From: a phage | Length of the DNA: 64,000 bases | Direction: 5' to 3' (one strand) | Sequence record: PZ583739.1 | In this document: piece by piece, positions 5,642 through 62,515 of the stretch | Numbering within the stretch: position 1 is the stretch's first letter | Layout of the letters: the number at the start of each line of letters is the position of its first letter | The notes under the pieces: model-generated | What the model was told of the DNA's origin: nothing | The model's input: the letters and a program-made list of their open reading frames with translations, nothing else | The model's database searches: none | Translations under genes and position numbers: made by a program

Positions 5642-6736
5642 ATGAAAGTAAAAGAACTCGATATTGATATTGCGGGTTTATTTAACGGAGGTTCTAAGAC
5701 CTCCGCTGGGCAGTCAAAAGCTGCCCAGACTCAAGCTACTATTGTGGCGCAATATCCAGCAGAACGAGCTTCCGGTAATGATTCTTCAGATGATATGCGA
5801 GTTAATGACCTTTATAAAAATGGTCTGTTATTCACGGCATACAATTTCAGTTCAAGAACATCTCCGGAATTACGCTCAGACAGGTCAAGCCAATTGACTT
5901 CATTAAAGAAAGTTTCCAATGGTGCTTCATTTAACCCGGTTAAAAGTTTAACATCTTTTGCTAAATCGAAATTAACCGGCGCTGGCTCAACCGGTAAAAG
6001 TTTTGATTCAAACGCTGTTGCAAATATCCTGTTGCCTCGTTCGAAGTCCGATGTAGAATCCGTATCGCATCGATTCAACGATGTTGGTGAGTCTCTTATT
6101 ACGAAAGGTGGTGGCTCAGCTACAGGTATTCTTAGTAACATCGCATCGACTGCAGTTTTCGGCGCACTCGAATCAGTTACAAACGGTGTAATGGCCGACC
6201 ATGGCGAACAGATTTACACAACCGCGCGAAGCATGTATGCTGGTCCCGATAACAGGACAAAAGTTTATACCTGGGAAATGACTCCACGTTCGGCCCAGGA
6301 CTTAATCCAGATAGTGAAGATATACGAGATTTTTAACTATTACTCCTATGGGGAAACCGGTAAAAGTTCGTTTGCTTCCGAGCTGAAAGATAAAATCGAT
6401 ACATGGTATAAATCCACCTTCAAAAAGGAAGCAATCGATAACTTTGACGGCAAGTTGCTCGGTGAAGAGATAACAAGCTTCCTAACGAACGTTCTGGTGG
6501 TCTCTAACCCTACTATCTGGTATATCCGCAACTTCGGTGATACAAGCTCGTACGATGGCCGTGGGGAGCTATTTGGGCCGTGCCAGATTCAGAGCATAAG
6601 ATTCGATAAATCCCCGGATGGTCATTTCGGTGGATTAGCTATTGCTCCTAACCTGCCATCGACTTTTGTACTTGAAATCACTTTCCGTGAAATCATTACG
6701 CTTAACCGTGGCTCATTATATGCGGAAGGTTTCTAA
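5642..6736 (+). CDS. 48: baseplate tail tube cap gp48
   Basis: 364 aa, same length as T4 gp48; syntenic. Confidence 0.8.
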   Translation: MKVKELDIDIAGLFNGGSKTSAGQSKAAQTQATIVAQYPAERASGNDSSDDMRVNDLYKNGLLFTAYNFSSRTSPELRSDRSSQLTSLKKVSNGASFNPVKSLTSFAKSKLTGAGSTGKSFDSNAVANILLPRSKSDVESVSHRFNDVGESLITKGGGSATGILSNIASTAVFGALESVTNGVMADHGEQIYTTARSMYAGPDNRTKVYTWEMTPRSAQDLIQIVKIYEIFNYYSYGETGKSSFASELKDKIDTWYKSTFKKEAIDNFDGKLLGEEITSFLTNVLVVSNPTIWYIRNFGDTSSYDGRGELFGPCQIQSIRFDKSPDGHFGGLAIAPNLPSTFVLEITFREIITLNRGSLYAEGF

Positions 6737-7695
6737 TGTTTACTTTACAAGAATTTCAAACACAAGCGATTAATATCGACTTACAAAGGAATAACCTTTT
6801 TAGTGTGGTCTTCGCGACCACACCTTCCTCCAAATCTCAGAATCTTCTGGACCAGTTTGGTGGCGCATTATTCAGCAACCTTCCTGTTAACTCAGATTGG
6901 TTCGGATTAACACAAGGTGACTTAACTCAAGGGATAACAACTCTTGTTACTGCCGGGACACAAAAGCTTATTCGCAAATCAGGGATAAGCAAATATCTTA
7001 TCGGGGCAATGAGTAACCGTGTTGTGCAATCATTATTGGGGGAATTTGAGGTTGGTACTTACCTGCTTGATTTCTTTAATATGGCATATCCAACGGCTGG
7101 TCTATTAGTTCACTCTGTTAAGCTTCCGGATAACACATTGAACTACGAAATGGACCTTAACCATAATGCACCAAATATCAAGATAACAGGGAGAGAATAT
7201 TCTCCATTGGTATTGAGCTTCAGAATGGATTCAGAGGCAGGGAACTTTAGAGCATTTAACGATTGGGTCAACTCTGTACAGGACCCAGTTACCCAGCTAA
7301 GGGCCTTGCCTGAAGACGTTGAAGCTGATATTCAGGTTAACCTTCATTCGCGTAACGGATTGCCGCATACGGTTGTTATGTTAACTGGTTGTGTTCCTGT
7401 AAGTGTATCAGCGCCTGAATTGAGTTATGAAGGGGATAATCAGATAGCTACATTTGATGTAACTTTTGCTTATCGCGTTATGTCAACTGGTGCGGTGGGA
7501 AGAGCTGCGGCATTGGAATGGTTGGAAGATAAGGTTATTAAGGGTGTATCTGGTATTAGTTCAGATAACAACTTGAACTCAGAAGTTGCCAAATTGAGCC
7601 GCTTGTCTGGTGCTCAATCTGGATTAACAAGTCTATACAATACGTTTACTGGTTCTGGGAGAACAGTCTCTGGTGGAAGTCAACGTATATTATAA
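6736..7695 (+). CDS. 54: baseplate tail tube initiator gp54
   Basis: 319 aa; T4 gp54 is about 320 aa; syntenic; followed by terminator. Confidence 0.8.
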   Translation: MFTLQEFQTQAINIDLQRNNLFSVVFATTPSSKSQNLLDQFGGALFSNLPVNSDWFGLTQGDLTQGITTLVTAGTQKLIRKSGISKYLIGAMSNRVVQSLLGEFEVGTYLLDFFNMAYPTAGLLVHSVKLPDNTLNYEMDLNHNAPNIKITGREYSPLVLSFRMDSEAGNFRAFNDWVNSVQDPVTQLRALPEDVEADIQVNLHSRNGLPHTVVMLTGCVPVSVSAPELSYEGDNQIATFDVTFAYRVMSTGAVGRAAALEWLEDKVIKGVSGISSDNNLNSEVAKLSRLSGAQSGLTSLYNTFTGSGRTVSGGSQRIL

Positions 7696-14396: not shown

Positions 14397-14467
14397 TTTA
14401 TTCTCCAGTTGTTTTCATTTGTTGGTACAGGTCTATAATATCATAACCTGTACCAAAGTAAACTGTT

Positions 14468-30059: not shown

Positions 30060-30299
30060 TCACGCTTTCTTAGCGACTTTCCAGTCAGCTTTAAATTGGT
30101 CAACATCAGAGTGGTGAATCCAGAAACCAGATGAGCTACCATCTTCATAAAGAGGACAACCATCACACTCATCTTTCCAACCCATCGCACATAAAGTTTC
30201 TTCAGCTTTTTCCAGGGCTTCTGGATTGTTACCCTGGATTGTAAAGTACCATTTGCCTTTAACTTCTGAATCTTTGATGCTCTCACGTTGTAATTTCAT
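30060..30299 (-). CDS. hypothetical protein
   Basis: 79 aa; ATG preceded by conserved leader ...actggagaataaaATG. Confidence 0.5.
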   Translation of the reverse strand: MKLQRESIKDSEVKGKWYFTIQGNNPEALEKAEETLCAMGWKDECDGCPLYEDGSSSGFWIHHSDVDQFKADWKVAKKA

Positions 30300-30340
30300 T
30301 TTATTCTCCAGTGTTTTAGTTGTTAACTCAGTATGGGACC

Positions 30341-30369
30341 ATTATGTCATAGCCCCATTTGGTTGTACA
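30341..30369 (-). promoter_or_regulatory. early promoter (TGTACA / CATAAT) with conserved leader
   Basis: Minus strand TGTACA, 17 nt, CATAAT, then leader ggtcccatactgagttaacaac...ggagaataaaATG. Confidence 0.5.
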
Positions 30370-30376
30370 CTACTTT

Positions 30377-31293: not shown

Positions 31294-31321
31294 TTTATTT
31301 TCCTCATGTAGTTGATAGGTC

Positions 31322-31352
31322 TATAATAACATAATCATAGACCCGTTGTAAA
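31322..31352 (-). promoter_or_regulatory. early promoter (GTTTAC) with stem-loop over the -10 region
   Basis: Minus strand GTTTAC, then hairpin ggtctat...atagacc containing a TATTAT-like -10, then leader ...catgaggaaaataaaATG. Confidence 0.45.
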
Positions 31353-31355
31353 CTG

Positions 31356-44221: not shown

Positions 44222-44226
44222 TAAGA

Positions 44227-44240
44227 GGGGCTTCGGCCCC
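44227..44240 (+). other. GC hairpin with UUCG loop between genes 37 and 38
   Basis: ggggc-ttcg-gcccc with no T-run; overlaps the gene 38 SD region. Confidence 0.4.
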
Positions 44241-44252
44241 TTGGAGGTTTAT

Positions 44253-46047: not shown

Positions 46048-46076
46048 ATTATACTATTATTCCTCTGGGTTGTACA
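46048..46076 (-). promoter_or_regulatory. early promoter (TGTACA / TATAAT) for asiA
   Basis: Minus strand TGTACA, 17 nt, TATAAT, about 45 nt upstream of the asiA ATG. Confidence 0.55.
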
Positions 46077-46221
46077 CATGATTTTCCATGTGTACAACAT
46101 ATTCCTGATACATCTGTTCAACTGGTTCCTGGAACTTAAAATCAGCTCCAAGGAATTCCTCAAAGCAAGCCAGCTCGCGTGTACGTTGACCGGTGATGGT
46201 GTTCTCTAAGTTATGACTCAT
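46057..46221 (-). CDS. small acidic ORF (54 aa), not in the ORF track
   Basis: ATG at 46219-46221; MSHNLENTITGQRTRELACFEEF...; overlaps the asiA promoter; speculative. Confidence 0.25.
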   Translation of the reverse strand: MSHNLENTITGQRTRELACFEEFLGADFKFQEPVEQMYQEYVVHMENHVYNPEE

Positions 46222-49833: not shown

Positions 49834-49841
49834 ATATCACC

Positions 49842-49982
49842 TTACCAGATTAACGAATGTACTGCCATTATAGCATCAGAAATAAAAAGCACAACCTGCA
49901 CTAATGCAAATACAACTCCATAATACAGCGCTACCAATAAGGCAGCAAGGGCTAACGAGTAGCCCAGGATTTTCTTAATCAT
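49842..49982 (-). CDS. small hydrophobic peptide (46 aa), not in the ORF track
   Basis: MIKKILGYSLALAALLVALYYGVVFALVQVVLFISDAIMAVHSLIW; ATGA overlap with the upstream stop; speculative. Confidence 0.3.
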   Translation of the reverse strand: MIKKILGYSLALAALLVALYYGVVFALVQVVLFISDAIMAVHSLIW

Positions 49983-50682: not shown

Positions 50683-50720
50683 ATTAATTTCCTCAGTAAG
50701 TTAAAGTTTTGTGCTCCAGT

Positions 50721-50755
50721 GGGGTCATTATACTCTGACCCCATGAGTTTGTACA
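50721..50755 (-). promoter_or_regulatory. early promoter embedded in stem-loop (PeSL-like), near-identical copy of 62473..62507
   Basis: Minus strand TGTACA, 17 nt, TATAAT; ggggtca/tgacccc inverted repeat brackets the -10; about 45 bp nearly identical to 62465-62510. Confidence 0.55.
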
Positions 50756-52186: not shown

Positions 52187-52211
52187 TTTATTCTCCAGTC
52201 TGTTTGGTAAC

Positions 52212-52254
52212 TCAGTATGGAATCATTATACAATAGACTCCATACTGATGTACA
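52212..52254 (-). promoter_or_regulatory. early promoter embedded in stem-loop (PeSL-like)
   Basis: Minus strand TGTACA, 18 nt, TATAAT; 10-bp inverted repeat tcagtatgga/tccatactga brackets the -10. Confidence 0.5.
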
Positions 52255-52265
52255 CTACTTTTTAA

Positions 52266-52541: not shown

Positions 52542-52588
52542 GATAATGTCCTCATTTGTTGGTATGAGGACATTATTACACAGTTGGT

Positions 52589-57425: not shown

Positions 57426-57442
57426 ATTTTCACCTCAAAGAC

Positions 57443-57497
57443 ATATTAACACACTTTTTGTGGCTTGTACATAATAAAAAAGGACCCGAAGGTCCTT
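57443..57497 (-). promoter_or_regulatory. terminator hairpin followed by early promoter (PeSL-like cassette)
   Basis: Minus strand aggacc-ttcg-ggtcct hairpin plus TTTTTTATT, then TGTACA, 17 nt, TAATAT. Confidence 0.5.
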
Positions 57498-57501
57498 TTG
57501 G

Positions 57502-57654
57502 CTACTCAACTTTATAGACTTGCCCATATGCGGTATAGTATTCACCATCCCAGGTCTCGCACATAATGGTGACAAAGGATGCAAACAGAGGTTTAGTCTC
57601 GGCCCACAGATAACCGTATTCGCCATTTGACAACGTAACCCACCACTTTTTCAT
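57502..57654 (-). CDS. small ORF (50 aa), not in the ORF track
   Basis: ATG at 57652-57654 with SD AGGAGAAG; MKKWWVTLSNGEYGYLWAETKPLF...; preferred over the overlapping track ORF 57435..57626. Confidence 0.35.
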   Translation of the reverse strand: MKKWWVTLSNGEYGYLWAETKPLFASFVTIMCETWDGEYYTAYGQVYKVE

Positions 57655-57693
57655 GGACTTCTCCTATAAGACGGGAGAATATTCTCCCGTATC

Positions 57694-57701
57694 TATTTAT
57701 A
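57694..57701 (-). promoter_or_regulatory. T4-type late promoter motif (TATAAATA) overlapping the gene 39 stop
   Basis: Minus strand TATAAATA immediately upstream of a 20-bp palindrome and the small ORF at 57502..57654. Confidence 0.4.
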
Positions 57702-59529
57702 GCGTCGCATTCATCCAGTCTTTACGCTGCTGGGAATCTTTACCGAATAGCATTTCGAACAGTTCTTTCCAATTGTCGGGCAATTGAACAACTTCGAATA
57801 CTGGCTCGAGCAATACGCGTTTGTACTCTGAATCTTCCAGAGAACCAAGCCCCTTGATATATCGAATGGTATGCTTCGGAAGTTTATCCTTAGCTTCTTC
57901 GTAATCAGGAAGAGAATAGAACCATTCTTGTTTATCTTTGAGCTGTGCAATAATAACAGGAGTTTTCACAAAGCGAATTCGTCCTTCATGGAACAGCTCT
58001 GGCCAGTTACTGAAAAACGCCAATAACGATGGATAGATACTACCAACACCATCCACATCCGCATCTGTCATGATAGCAATGTTTCGGTAATTCATATTCT
58101 CGGCCGGTTGTCCAATCGTTAAACCAGTAATCGCACACACATCAAAGGCTTCAGCGTTCTTCATAACTTCAACAGCTTTCAGACCCCATGTGTTTTTAAA
58201 CTTACCACGTAACGGATAAGCACCTTGCAATTCACGGTCACGAACCTTGATAAACGGACCCGTTGCAGAATCTCCTTCGGTCAGGAATAGAGTCGTTTCC
58301 AGCTTATCATTACCCCATTCGTTGGCTTTGATATGCTTTTGTACCTTGGCCTTTGAAGCTTTCTTATTTGCTTTAGTCTCTGCTGCTTTCTCTGCAGCCA
58401 ATTTACGAGCCAATGCAGCTTCAATGATAGGCGTCAGAATAGCTTCTGATTTTAACAACGAACCAGCTAACTTTTTGCCATCAACCTGGATATGTGATTT
58501 AATTTCACCGGCAGGTGAAGTCAATCGCTCCTTAGTCTGGGAATCAAATCGCATGTTCTTCATATTGCGAATAAACATCAACAATGTAATACATTCTTTA
58601 ACGCGTGCTTTGGTTACTTCAATTTTATACTTGCGTTTAATCGCCGGGATTAACACATCACACATTTCATCCATAACACATTCAATATGGTGACCACCAT
58701 TTTTTGTATGGATTCCGTTAACATAAGTCACATGACGGAAACCATCGGGTGACCGACCAATTGCAATTGAGCAATTATCTTGTTCCTGAATAATGATTTC
58801 ATCATCGTATTGCTTGGCATATTTTTTAAAGTGACCTTGCACTTTTTTACCATTGAACTTGAATTCGATATCCGGATAAATGACTGCAAGAGTCTGGATT
58901 TGGTCAAGCATAATTTGGACATATGTTTCGTCAAAACCAGACGTTTCAAAATTCGAAAAATCCGGAATAAATTTAACTTTAGTTCCTTGCAACTTTGATG
59001 GTTTTGATTTCCATGAAATATTATCAAGTCCATTTGAACAATTAACGGTTAATTCATTTTTCCCATCTGATGTAGTGCCTGTGAACAATATTGAAAAAAT
59101 ATTGGTAAGACTGGACCCAACTCCGTTCATCCCAGTGGTAACACGATTTGCATCATCACTAAAGTTTCCACCCGAACGAACCTTGGTCCATGCAGCGACC
59201 GGCCCAGGAATTTCTTCGCCTTCTGGGGTTACAACAATCGCCTGTGGAATGCCTCGACCATTATCTTCAACGGTCACTTCGTTTGTTTTGATATCAATAT
59301 TCAATGAAATTTTGTTTGCAAATTTAAAATTGGTGCGAATAGCTTCATCAATAGAGTTATTTGCAATTTCTTCGATTAATTTAATTAAACCTGGAACGTA
59401 TTGAACCTTTTTATATTCACCAAACAGAAAAATTTCTTTGTCTTCATTGGTAACACTACCGATGTACATTGATGGGCGAGCTTTTACGTGAGCTACATCA
59501 GAAAGGATTTGAATTTCATTCTTAATCAT
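57697..59529 (-). CDS. 39: DNA topoisomerase II large subunit, fused gp39/gp60 form (GyrB-like ATPase)
   Basis: 610 aa continuous ORF; GHKL ATPase motifs (NSIDEA, EDNGRGIP) at the N-terminus; longer than T4 gp39 (516 aa), consistent with the gp60 part being fused. Confidence 0.9.
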   Translation of the reverse strand: MIKNEIQILSDVAHVKARPSMYIGSVTNEDKEIFLFGEYKKVQYVPGLIKLIEEIANNSIDEAIRTNFKFANKISLNIDIKTNEVTVEDNGRGIPQAIVVTPEGEEIPGPVAAWTKVRSGGNFSDDANRVTTGMNGVGSSLTNIFSILFTGTTSDGKNELTVNCSNGLDNISWKSKPSKLQGTKVKFIPDFSNFETSGFDETYVQIMLDQIQTLAVIYPDIEFKFNGKKVQGHFKKYAKQYDDEIIIQEQDNCSIAIGRSPDGFRHVTYVNGIHTKNGGHHIECVMDEMCDVLIPAIKRKYKIEVTKARVKECITLLMFIRNMKNMRFDSQTKERLTSPAGEIKSHIQVDGKKLAGSLLKSEAILTPIIEAALARKLAAEKAAETKANKKASKAKVQKHIKANEWGNDKLETTLFLTEGDSATGPFIKVRDRELQGAYPLRGKFKNTWGLKAVEVMKNAEAFDVCAITGLTIGQPAENMNYRNIAIMTDADVDGVGSIYPSLLAFFSNWPELFHEGRIRFVKTPVIIAQLKDKQEWFYSLPDYEEAKDKLPKHTIRYIKGLGSLEDSEYKRVLLEPVFEVVQLPDNWKELFEMLFGKDSQQRKDWMNATL

Positions 59530-61610: not shown

Positions 61611-61827
61611 GATAAGTCTCCTTCCAAAAATCTGTGCCATCTTCTGATTCTTCGCGGAACAGCGCATAGCTAGGTAGTTCTGCATCTTTATCTGCGTACA
61701 CATAAATGATGTCAGTGGTACAAAGAAATTCATTGATGTTTTTCTTCACAATCACTTTATCACTTTCAGCAGTGTCCCAGAACTCTTCAGCAGTCAGGGA
61801 AGTGGTCACACAATTTTCATTAAACAT
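61597..61827 (-). CDS. hypothetical protein
   Basis: 76 aa ORF. Confidence 0.4.
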   Translation of the reverse strand: MFNENCVTTSLTAEEFWDTAESDKVIVKKNINEFLCTTDIIYVYADKDAELPSYALFREESEDGTDFWKETYHVEI

Positions 61828-61875
61828 AATATTCTCCTCATTGATAGGGTAATTTTACCCTATCATTTTTATAAT

Positions 61876-62436: not shown

Positions 62437-62472
62437 AATTTTCTCTCTTGGTTAATAAGTTTATTCTCCAGT

Positions 62473-62507
62473 GGGGTCATTATACTCTGACCCCAAGAGT
62501 TTGTACA
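62473..62507 (-). promoter_or_regulatory. early promoter embedded in stem-loop (PeSL-like), near-identical copy of 50721..50755
   Basis: Minus strand TGTACA, 17 nt, TATAAT; ggggtca/tgacccc stem around the -10. Confidence 0.55.
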
Positions 62508-62515
62508 CTTTAAAT

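Follow-up and report, generated by a model that had tools for sequence, protein, structure and literature searches.

The closest described systems to the element reported here come from T4-type phages, in which a promoter and an RNA stem-loop can share one short intergenic sequence. The element is a 20-nt palindrome, ACGGGAGAATATTCTCCCGT (minus strand, 57671-57690), in a 64,000-nt stretch of phage DNA (sequence record PZ583739.1), to which we refer as the window; it lies after gene 39, between a T4-type late promoter box and a small open reading frame (ORF) of 50 amino acids. In the PeSL modules (early promoter plus stem-loop) of RB49, phi1 and other T4-type phages, a stop codon, an early promoter, a stem-loop, a Shine-Dalgarno sequence (SD) and an ATG follow each other; the module is regarded as a linker for recombination, and its stem-loop as an attenuator or terminator of transcription that arrives from upstream (Arbiol et al. 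2010, PMC2839356; Comeau et al. 2014, PMC4122927). In the case of the RB49 211/210 PeSL, the stem-loop, which has no U-tract, cut downstream lacZ expression about as much as rrnB T1 (PMC2839356), thus giving a reporter-level precedent for attenuation by such a hairpin. A different design is known from the T4 genes e, soc, 49 and I-TevI, where a late promoter is embedded in an inhibitory hairpin that is specific to read-through RNA (PMC3014915).

The locus studied here resembles the PeSL modules in its compact intergenic order of stop codon, promoter, stem-loop, SD and ATG before a small ORF. Its stem-loop overlaps or adjoins the promoter and lacks a U-tract, as in RB49 211/210, and both arrangements appear to serve as recombination joints for swapping the ORF that they flank. 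However, the cassette has a gp55-type late box and no conserved -35/-10 pair, whereas the PeSL has a sigma-70 early promoter. The cassette is also single-copy and locus-specific, whereas the PeSL is a dispersed repeat, and its position is conserved across many genera, whereas PeSLs populate hyperplastic regions. Late promoters are nowhere mentioned in the two PeSL papers (PMC2839356, PMC4122927). With e, soc, 49 and I-TevI, the locus has in common that the putative late promoter lies in the DNA of the 5' strand of the structure, that the late RNA would miss part of this structure (here a small part), and that no terminator separates the late gene from the early transcription upstream of it. 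By analogy, our best reading is that the cassette would be a late-promoter analogue of the PeSL and e/soc/I-TevI designs, differing from both as they are known. The palindrome is very probably a genuine, conserved sense-strand RNA stem-loop, integral to a late-promoter cassette for the 50-amino-acid gene. Regarding its function, our main reading, with a probability of roughly 0.4, is that the hairpin insulates this late mini-gene from the early gene 39 message.

On the minus strand, the sequence runs GCG ACG CTA TAA ATA GAT at the end of gene 39, then ACGGGAGAATATTCTCCCGT, CTTATAGGAGAAGTCC and ATG, with 3 bases between the box and the palindrome and the spacer CTTAT between the palindrome and the SD. 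The palindrome is a 100% complementary inverted repeat, as the initial annotation had stated for 57671-57690. The RNA folding that this annotation had proposed as a check was done computationally and yielded an 8-bp stem (5' arm 57690-57683, 3' arm 57678-57671) closed by an AUAU loop (57682-57679), with an energy of -12.5 kcal/mol and z = -5.15; 0 of 200 shuffles were equally stable. By chance, 64 kb should contain about 0.06 perfect 20-bp palindromes (64000 x 4^-10, our own arithmetic), and the invariant 16-nt core, GGGAGAATATTCTCCC (57688-57673), is present as a single copy in the window. Hairpins of -11.1 kcal/mol or lower are present in 25 of the 48 intergenic gaps of at least 20 nt, and by energy the palindrome ranks 12th among these gaps. 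As judged from the sequence, stable intergenic hairpins are thus routine in the window, and it is the structural conservation across genera, not the stability, that lifts the palindrome above chance.

This conservation was assessed in 25 loci that carry the same cassette and correspond to about 12 independent hairpin sequences, with at least 12 hairpin lineages in at least six genera. The loci are from Gaprivervirus, the genus of the window; from Dhakavirus (JS98, Bp7, WG01), Kanagawavirus (PEi26, Entb_45, CIP9) and Jiaodavirus (JD18, KP185, GF); from Citrobacter phage Ursula; and from IMG/VR contigs labelled TG1, CBH8 and Merlin, plus one further IMG/VR contig which we take to be CC31. The small ORF always stands directly after gene 39 in these loci, and the layout is shared: the box [T/A]ATAAATA, a hairpin at -2 to +5 nt past the box, an SD at 0-7 nt past the stem, the ATG and then, in every lineage, a homologous ORF of 50-58 amino acids followed by a U-tract terminator. 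The hairpin arms are unrelated in sequence (GGGAGA/UCUCCC, UAGUAGGG/CCCUACUA, AUCGGGC/GCCCGAU, UACGGUAC/GUACCGUA, UACGAGG/CCUCGUA, GUAAGGG/CCCUUAC and others), and the loops, of 3-8 nt, have no common sequence. Every hairpin was more stable than its dinucleotide shuffles (z from -2.1 to -7.0). Of the 8 positions, 7.5 paired between cognate arms and 3.7 between non-cognate arms, and a count of 7 or more was seen in only 0.6% of the non-cognate pairs. Within one genus, JS98 and Bp7 differ by a compensatory change from C-G to U-A. A search for a consensus structure by RNAalifold on a MAFFT alignment of 18 leaders returned none, because stem offsets differ slightly and loop sizes vary; structural conservation was therefore judged by the z-scores of each lineage together with the comparison of cognate and non-cognate arms.

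The position of the box relative to the stem is also maintained. TG1 and JD18 have extra bases between the stop codon and the box, and yet the box-to-stem spacing is kept. In JD18 (locus L090, ~440-460), the gene 39 stop carries a 7-nt tandem duplication, GAATAAA followed by GAATAAATA, of which the copy on the hairpin side keeps the spacing. This indicates that conservation of the box does not depend on the stop codon.

T4 late promoters consist of an 8-bp box (TATAAATA or AATAAATA) at -13 to -6 and do not need a -35 element; the commonest natural variant has A at -13, where A or T is usual in T4 relatives (PMC2988020, PMC1524935). In the window, the sequence at 57694-57701 (minus strand) matches TATAAATA exactly, at 8 of 8 positions, and contains the gene 39 stop codon TAA (57699-57697). 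This box is invariant in 12 Gapriverviruses. Across genera, [T/A]ATAAATA is found in the same place in all 25 cassette-bearing loci and is missing where the small ORF is missing. The late-promoter motif noticed in the initial annotation is hence credible, given the exact match and the strict co-occurrence with the cassette. Under the -13 to -6 rule, the late start (+1) is predicted at G57688 (minus strand), the sixth nucleotide past the box, with which the invariant 6-bp inner stem (GGGAGA) opens. At the corresponding position, 19/20 loci have G and 1/20 has A. Positions -5 to -1 are GATAC (3/5 A/T) here and TAGTA, TGTAT, ATACG and similar in other lineages. Both the promoter activity of the box and its start site are predictions from the sequence. 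Other late-box leaders in the window have folding energies of -0.1 to -4.1 kcal/mol at six sites with an SD/ATG, and of at most -6.4 kcal/mol at any site, compared to -15.7 kcal/mol for the cassette leader. As the other late leaders are unstructured, the hairpin seems to be special to a late promoter that stands right after an early gene without a terminator between them.

To which strand the structure belongs can be seen from the wobble pairs. The sense hairpin was more stable than the antisense hairpin in 14 loci, equally stable in 5 and weaker in 1, due to G.U pairs such as those that distinguish the window (AC..GU) from RZ (GU..GU). Within Gaprivervirus only the two outermost stem positions vary, being AC..GT in the window, GT..GT in most genomes (as in RZ) and GT..GC in the VR7 type. 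In coding-strand RNA, these positions form A-U/C-G, G.U/U.G and G-C/U.G pairs, respectively; since the G.U wobbles are allowed in this RNA only, pairing is kept on that strand. Altogether, the G.U asymmetry, the complete turnover of the sequence and the variable loops indicate a sense-strand RNA structure and speak against a DNA dyad or an antisense terminator.

These observations bear directly on the protein-binding operator suggested in the initial annotation, which could be bound as a DNA dyad by a dimeric regulator or, as RNA, by RegA or by the product of the small ORF. The dyad is indeed perfect, and its 16-nt core is invariant within the genus across two alleles of the ORF. However, recombination through the block explains this invariance, neither the sequence nor the loop (3-8 nt) is conserved across genera, where only the pairing is kept, the G.U asymmetry favours RNA and one strand of it, and no fold that binds nucleic acids is recognisable in the small protein. 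Sites for RegA are A/U-rich, lack structure and either overlap the AUG or lie just 5' of it (PMC3014915). The element, on the contrary, is a stable hairpin 17-36 nt upstream of an AUG in the context GAAGUCCAUGAAA, so that the phage translational repressor named in the initial annotation does not fit as its ligand. We thus regard an operator as very improbable.

Like a Rho-independent terminator, the element is a G+C-rich intergenic hairpin with a short loop. It differs from one in that the coding strand has no U-tract and in that the real terminator of the unit is located further on, at 57499-57476. The coding-strand sequence past the palindrome is CTTATAGG, in agreement with the earlier remark that a T-run is missing and that this is not a typical terminator. 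The tail reads CUUAUAGG, tails after the stem in other lineages are A-rich, and a consensus scan for intrinsic terminators makes no minus-strand call. The same scan does flag the plus strand, where AUCUAUUUAU, complementary to the TATAAATA box, comes after the hairpin, and this complement provides a U-rich tail right past the stem in all lineages. An intrinsic terminator acting on the plus strand is nevertheless the least probable of the explanations considered: no plus-strand gene or unit exists here, the nearest plus-strand late box being more than 12 kb upstream; the antisense hairpins are systematically weaker; and the tail is kept as an exact promoter box, not as a U-run, whereas the genuine terminators here carry tails of U5-7.

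The RNA in which the structure is selected can be narrowed down from the bases at -7 to -1. These pair with the 3' flank in a lineage-specific manner: the contiguous extension of the stem averaged 3.9 pairs for cognate and 0.74 for non-cognate combinations, and extensions of at least 4 pairs occurred in 8/13 lineages with the cognate flank, versus 6% of the non-cognate combinations. This lineage-specific pairing implies that the selected structure needs an RNA begun upstream, i.e. read-through from gene 39. As the predicted +1 lies inside the 5' arm, the complete stem of 8-10 bp would be present only in gene 39 read-through transcripts.

A full stem selected in read-through RNA would also suit a decay barrier, in which the hairpin guards the 3' end of the gene 39 mRNA from 3'-exonucleases after a cut by RegB (at GGAG) or RNase E (in the A/U-rich linker), and the topoisomerase message outlives the downstream cistron. 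In most lineages the SD is GGAG, the RegB motif (specificity: PMC3014915), and some hairpin is found within about 15 nt past the gene 39 stop in all lineages examined. The phages without the cassette are instructive in this regard. Lineages that lack the small ORF (T2/T4-type phages, Klebsiella phage pzk-kv8 and two IMG/VR lineages) have neither box nor hairpin; there, an early promoter or a UUCG-loop terminator comes directly after gene 39. The latter corresponds to the terminator after the small ORF, and the palindrome is therefore part of the cassette rather than of gene 39. For the same reason, we dropped the notion that the UUCG hairpins of cassette-less phages represent a function of the gene 39 3' end. 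Moreover, the SDs of JD18, KP185 and PEi26 are of GGAA type without GGAG, and the constant box-to-stem spacing in TG1 and JD18, despite the extra bases between stop and box, is left unexplained by a decay barrier, which we consider unlikely.

The late RNA itself may carry a function at its 5' end. Stem-loops of the ompA type at the 5' terminus stabilise bacterial mRNAs, and 5'-terminal base pairing is reportedly stabilising for E. coli mRNAs (Emory, Bouvet and Belasco, in 1992). If the element were such a protective hairpin, the late mRNA would start at its first paired base with no overhang and be shielded from decay through RppH and RNase E. Together with the 3' terminator hairpin this would give a very stable late mRNA of ~210 nt, and read-through RNA cut in the A/U-rich region of the box would gain the same protection. 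RNase E is the main decay enzyme throughout T4 infection (PMC3014915), which counts in favour of this explanation. The predicted late RNA from G57688 folds as ((((((....)))))) from nucleotide 1, i.e. it would open with a 6-bp hairpin of -10.1 kcal/mol. The remnant of the stem in late RNA begins exactly at +1, with the first transcribed base paired, in 11/13 lineages. The hairpin is upstream of the SD and leaves it uncovered. The predicted late RNA thus shares with the ompA type a stable hairpin, no unpaired 5' nucleotide and a free ribosome-binding site (RBS).

The ompA-type arrangement is, however, not kept in all lineages, and the selected pairing includes bases outside the late RNA. Outside Gaprivervirus the remnant in late RNA is weak or absent (-2.4 to -7.5 kcal/mol). 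It is weak (-2.4 to -4.9 kcal/mol) in 5/13 lineages, whereas the full stem is always strong, and the late RNA of JD18 and KP185 no longer has it at the 5' end. The lineage-specific pairing of -7 to -1 is not selectable through late RNA, and pairing of +1 is automatic once the start falls inside the 5' arm. No hairpin is present in the six other late leaders of the window that precede an SD/ATG. Protection of the 5' end as the explanation of the element is therefore an unlikely alternative; as a second role of the hairpin in the late mRNA of Gaprivervirus, it is possible.

The sequences show the anatomy of the locus, its structural conservation, the strand preference, the use of bases upstream of +1 and a recombination boundary described below; the functional effects of the hairpin that follow are inferred. 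The cassette of late box, stem-loop and SD would head a one-gene late unit, consisting of the 50-amino-acid ORF and its own terminator. Many T4-like phages without a split gene 39/60 carry this unit after the early/middle gene 39 and before the operon terminator. In read-through RNA, the hairpin would lower expression of the small ORF via attenuation or pausing of RNA polymerase, hindered loading of ribosomes, or both. Later in infection, the embedded late promoter would start a short mRNA. In several sister genera, the hairpin may be the apical helix on top of a larger fold, which would bury the SD-AUG region in read-through RNA but not in late RNA. For the phage of the window this basal helix is not predicted, and the 6-bp stem (~-10 kcal/mol) at the 5' end of the late RNA could protect that end.

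Burial of the RBS is where the lineages differ. The leader hairpin considered in the initial annotation stands, as a transcribed-strand RNA hairpin in a leader or intercistronic region. The further suggestion that it hides or exposes the RBS holds, as a prediction, for 7/13 other lineages (CBH8, JS98, Bp7, PEi26, Entb_45, KP185 and one IMG/VR lineage), but not for this phage. In these seven, occlusion is predicted in read-through RNA only (z of 2.5-4.4 versus shuffles), with a cost of opening SD..AUG of 7-11 kcal/mol in read-through RNA versus 3-6 kcal/mol in late RNA. The predicted cause is an outer helix between the last gene 39 codons and the SD-AUG spacer, stacked under the hairpin; this is the likeness to e, soc, 49 and I-TevI in the strict sense, the RBS being buried in read-through RNA only. 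As a side observation, the conserved last codons of gene 39 (UGG AUG AGC/U or AAG GCC) complement the SD-AUG spacer in Entb_45 (L089), CBH8 (L076), Moon-type loci (L081/L092) and PEi26 (L088).

Several points weigh against insulation in this phage. Between the end of the stem and GGAG there are 6 nt, and both SD and AUG lie outside the stem. Opening SD..AUG is predicted to cost 5.5-5.6 kcal/mol in both read-through and late RNA, no more than with shuffled upstream sequence (z = -0.2). The cost is equal because of a weak local hairpin, UUAU-A-GGA-GAAG-UCC-AUGA (minus strand, 57651-57669), which is part of the minimum free energy structure of the 71-nt fold, pairs part of the SD and the AUG in both RNAs and is specific to ORF allele 1. 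Only 2/8 stem pairs are lost in late RNA here, versus 4-7 in other genera, and the remnant of 6 bp retains -10.1 kcal/mol compared to -13.0 kcal/mol for the full stem. With just these two pairs upstream of +1, the contrast between read-through and late RNA is small. Thus, in this phage the cassette differs from e, soc, 49 and I-TevI in that SD and AUG are not in the stem, the RBS is equally accessible and most of the stem is kept in late RNA. As there is no U-tract after the stem, classical intrinsic termination is not expected. The evidence for attenuation by PeSLs, to which we draw the analogy, derives from a reporter assay in another phage with another promoter class. In the literature, no transcript or start-site maps were found for VR7-like or other cassette-bearing phages.

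The truncated 5' arm offers another, genus-specific way to reach the RBS, namely a three-element SD/anti-SD switch. In such a switch, the 3' arm (UUCUCC) would capture the SD and shut the small ORF whenever the 5' arm (GGGAGAA) is unavailable, either melted by the ribosome terminating on gene 39, cut, or not in the transcript. GGAGAA is present both in the 5' arm and in the SD (AGGAGAA), and UUCUCC is complementary to it. With a truncated 5' arm, a UUCUCC:GGAGAA helix appears in the predicted fold, and truncation lifts the opening cost of SD..AUG from 1.2-5.6 to 6.6-6.9 kcal/mol in four Gapriverviruses. However, the complete hairpin (-12.5 kcal/mol) strongly out-competes this alternative. A ribosome that terminates on gene 39 should, by our own estimate, reach only to ~57690-57688 and melt 2-3 outer pairs, which is no convincing trigger. 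In other genera the complementarity is missing, and G-rich arms are SD-like by composition. We find the switch quite doubtful.

Returning to the conserved stem-loop as such, part of its invariance within Gaprivervirus has an independent origin. The block from GGATGAATGCGACGCTATAAATAGA to GGGAGAATATTCTCCC is essentially invariant in 12 Gapriverviruses, and the small ORF behind it exists as two alleles in the genus (57502-57670, loci L001-L012), with ~67% DNA identity and 74% protein identity. Sequence identity is ~100% up to the 3' edge of the palindrome and 67% directly beyond it, which marks this edge as the left breakpoint. Two haplotypes of the gene 39 end combine with the two ORF alleles, and all four combinations (4/4) occur. 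Also the terminator stem depends on the allele in a compensatory manner, being GGACC-UUCG-GGUCC in one and GGTCTCC-TTCG-GGAGACC in allele 2. Judging by these sequences, the conserved block is a joint for recombination between ORF alleles, and this alone accounts for much of the invariance within the genus.

Further candidates were considered and rejected. A dispersed repeat was ruled out by the one copy in the window and by the exact 16-mer matches in IMG/VR, which occur at 52 loci, mostly on unrelated contigs, and fit chance plus three Gapriverviruses. A stem of only 8-10 bp rules out an RNase III site. Translational bypass or stop read-through at the gene 39 stop (cf. T4 gene 60) was dropped, as a stop codon comes after the sole candidate landing codon, the stop contexts vary among lineages and there is no in-frame conservation. 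Rfam 15 gave no match overlapping 57671-57690, even at E <= 10. A near-copy of the core with 2 mismatches, GAGAGAATATTCTCCA, occurs at 7191-7206 (plus strand) within a plus-strand ORF of 319 amino acids (6736-7695) and is most likely due to chance.

If the insulation reading is true, T4-like phages overlap promoter and stem-loop for late as well as early promoters, and a late-expressed mini-gene can enter an early operon without a terminator. More tentatively, and with a low probability, late-promoter stem-loops could form a distinct, undescribed class of Tevenvirinae cassettes, a late 'moron' after gene 39 in at least six genera. The hairpin would then combine three roles (RBS trap or attenuator apex, 5' protector and recombination joint), with SD/anti-SD/SD-mimic remodelling in Gaprivervirus. 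The locus would allow transcriptional, translational and mRNA-stability effects of such hairpins to be told apart. For annotation, our analysis argues against calling the palindrome an operator or a terminator, and it flags a conserved, often unannotated gene of 50 amino acids.

The window comes from a T4-like phage of the VR7/SP18/RZ type, genus Gaprivervirus, and the 1-kb region around the element has 88-97% identity to 34 such genomes. The genes of the locus are all on the minus strand. Gene 39 (57697-59529, minus strand, from the ORF list) encodes 610 amino acids of a fused 39+60-type topoisomerase II large subunit, and relatives are annotated as DNA topoisomerase II large subunit. The SD of the small ORF, AGGAGAA, was read from the sequence at 57659-57665 (minus strand), and its ATG is at 57654, so that both lie within 34 nt of the predicted +1. 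The initial description of a motif overlapping the gene 39 stop, with the SD and ATG of a 50-amino-acid ORF downstream, was accurate in every detail. An intrinsic terminator of canonical form, AAAAGGACC-UUCG-GGUCCUUUUUU (57476-57499, minus strand), closes the unit of gene 39 and small ORF; its form is GGACC-UUCG-GGUCC-U6 and it stands 170 nt downstream of the palindrome. Beyond it are a DUF7367 ORF, rIIA.1 and rIIA. An early-promoter-like sequence of T4 type, ATGTAC-N17-TAATAT, was noticed at 57430-57475 (minus strand), directly past the terminator and before the DUF7367 ORF; its counterpart in WG01 is GTTTAC-N17-TATGAT. The locus thus reads late cassette, terminator and early promoter within 300 nt.

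The small ORF (57502-57654, minus strand) belongs to phrog_4369 (E = 8e-29) and is predicted to form a four-strand beta meander. A tblastn search on phage genomes detected it in 271 phage records from many Tevenvirinae lineages. In the records of JS98 (L087, ORF 501-650), JS10, IME08 and PKO111 no feature is annotated at the small ORF. The protein gave no match in Pfam. A single-sequence AlphaFold model reached a pLDDT (predicted local distance difference test) score of 85.5, and comparison of this model to the PDB gave no significant fold match.

Some observations at other sites were made in passing. In pzk-kv8 (L004, 1886-1912), gene 39 is followed by a UUCG-loop hairpin that lacks a U-tract and abuts an SD. 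The same design is seen in the window at 44222-44252 (plus strand), where GAGGGGC-UUCG-GCCCCUU-GGAGG forms a hairpin without U-tract abutting a GGAGG SD; this may be a recurrent junction element. In locus L072 (IMGVR_UViG_2974739009_000001, ~2095-2200), an ORF starting with MNYRKIYDKLIAAAKNR, presumably HNH homing-endonuclease-like, begins right at the gene 39 stop, which recalls the mobA insertion that splits T4 gene 39/60.

Strong hairpins of -13.7 to -18.3 kcal/mol were also found in six minus-strand gaps of the window (62437-62515, 50683-50755, 52187-52265, 14397-14467, 30173-30376 and 31294-31355). Their loops hold a TATAAT-like -10 box, e.g. GGGGUCAGAGUAUAAUGACCCC, which occurs twice. 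These six look like PeSL cassettes, of which we found none described for Gaprivervirus. Other strong intergenic repeats include a double hairpin at ~49.9 kb (49834-49978; -17.8 kcal/mol), a 13-bp perfect stem at 52543-52576 (gap 52542-52588), a 12-bp perfect repeat at 46069-46098 and an 11-bp stem at 61842-61865 (gap 61734-61875).

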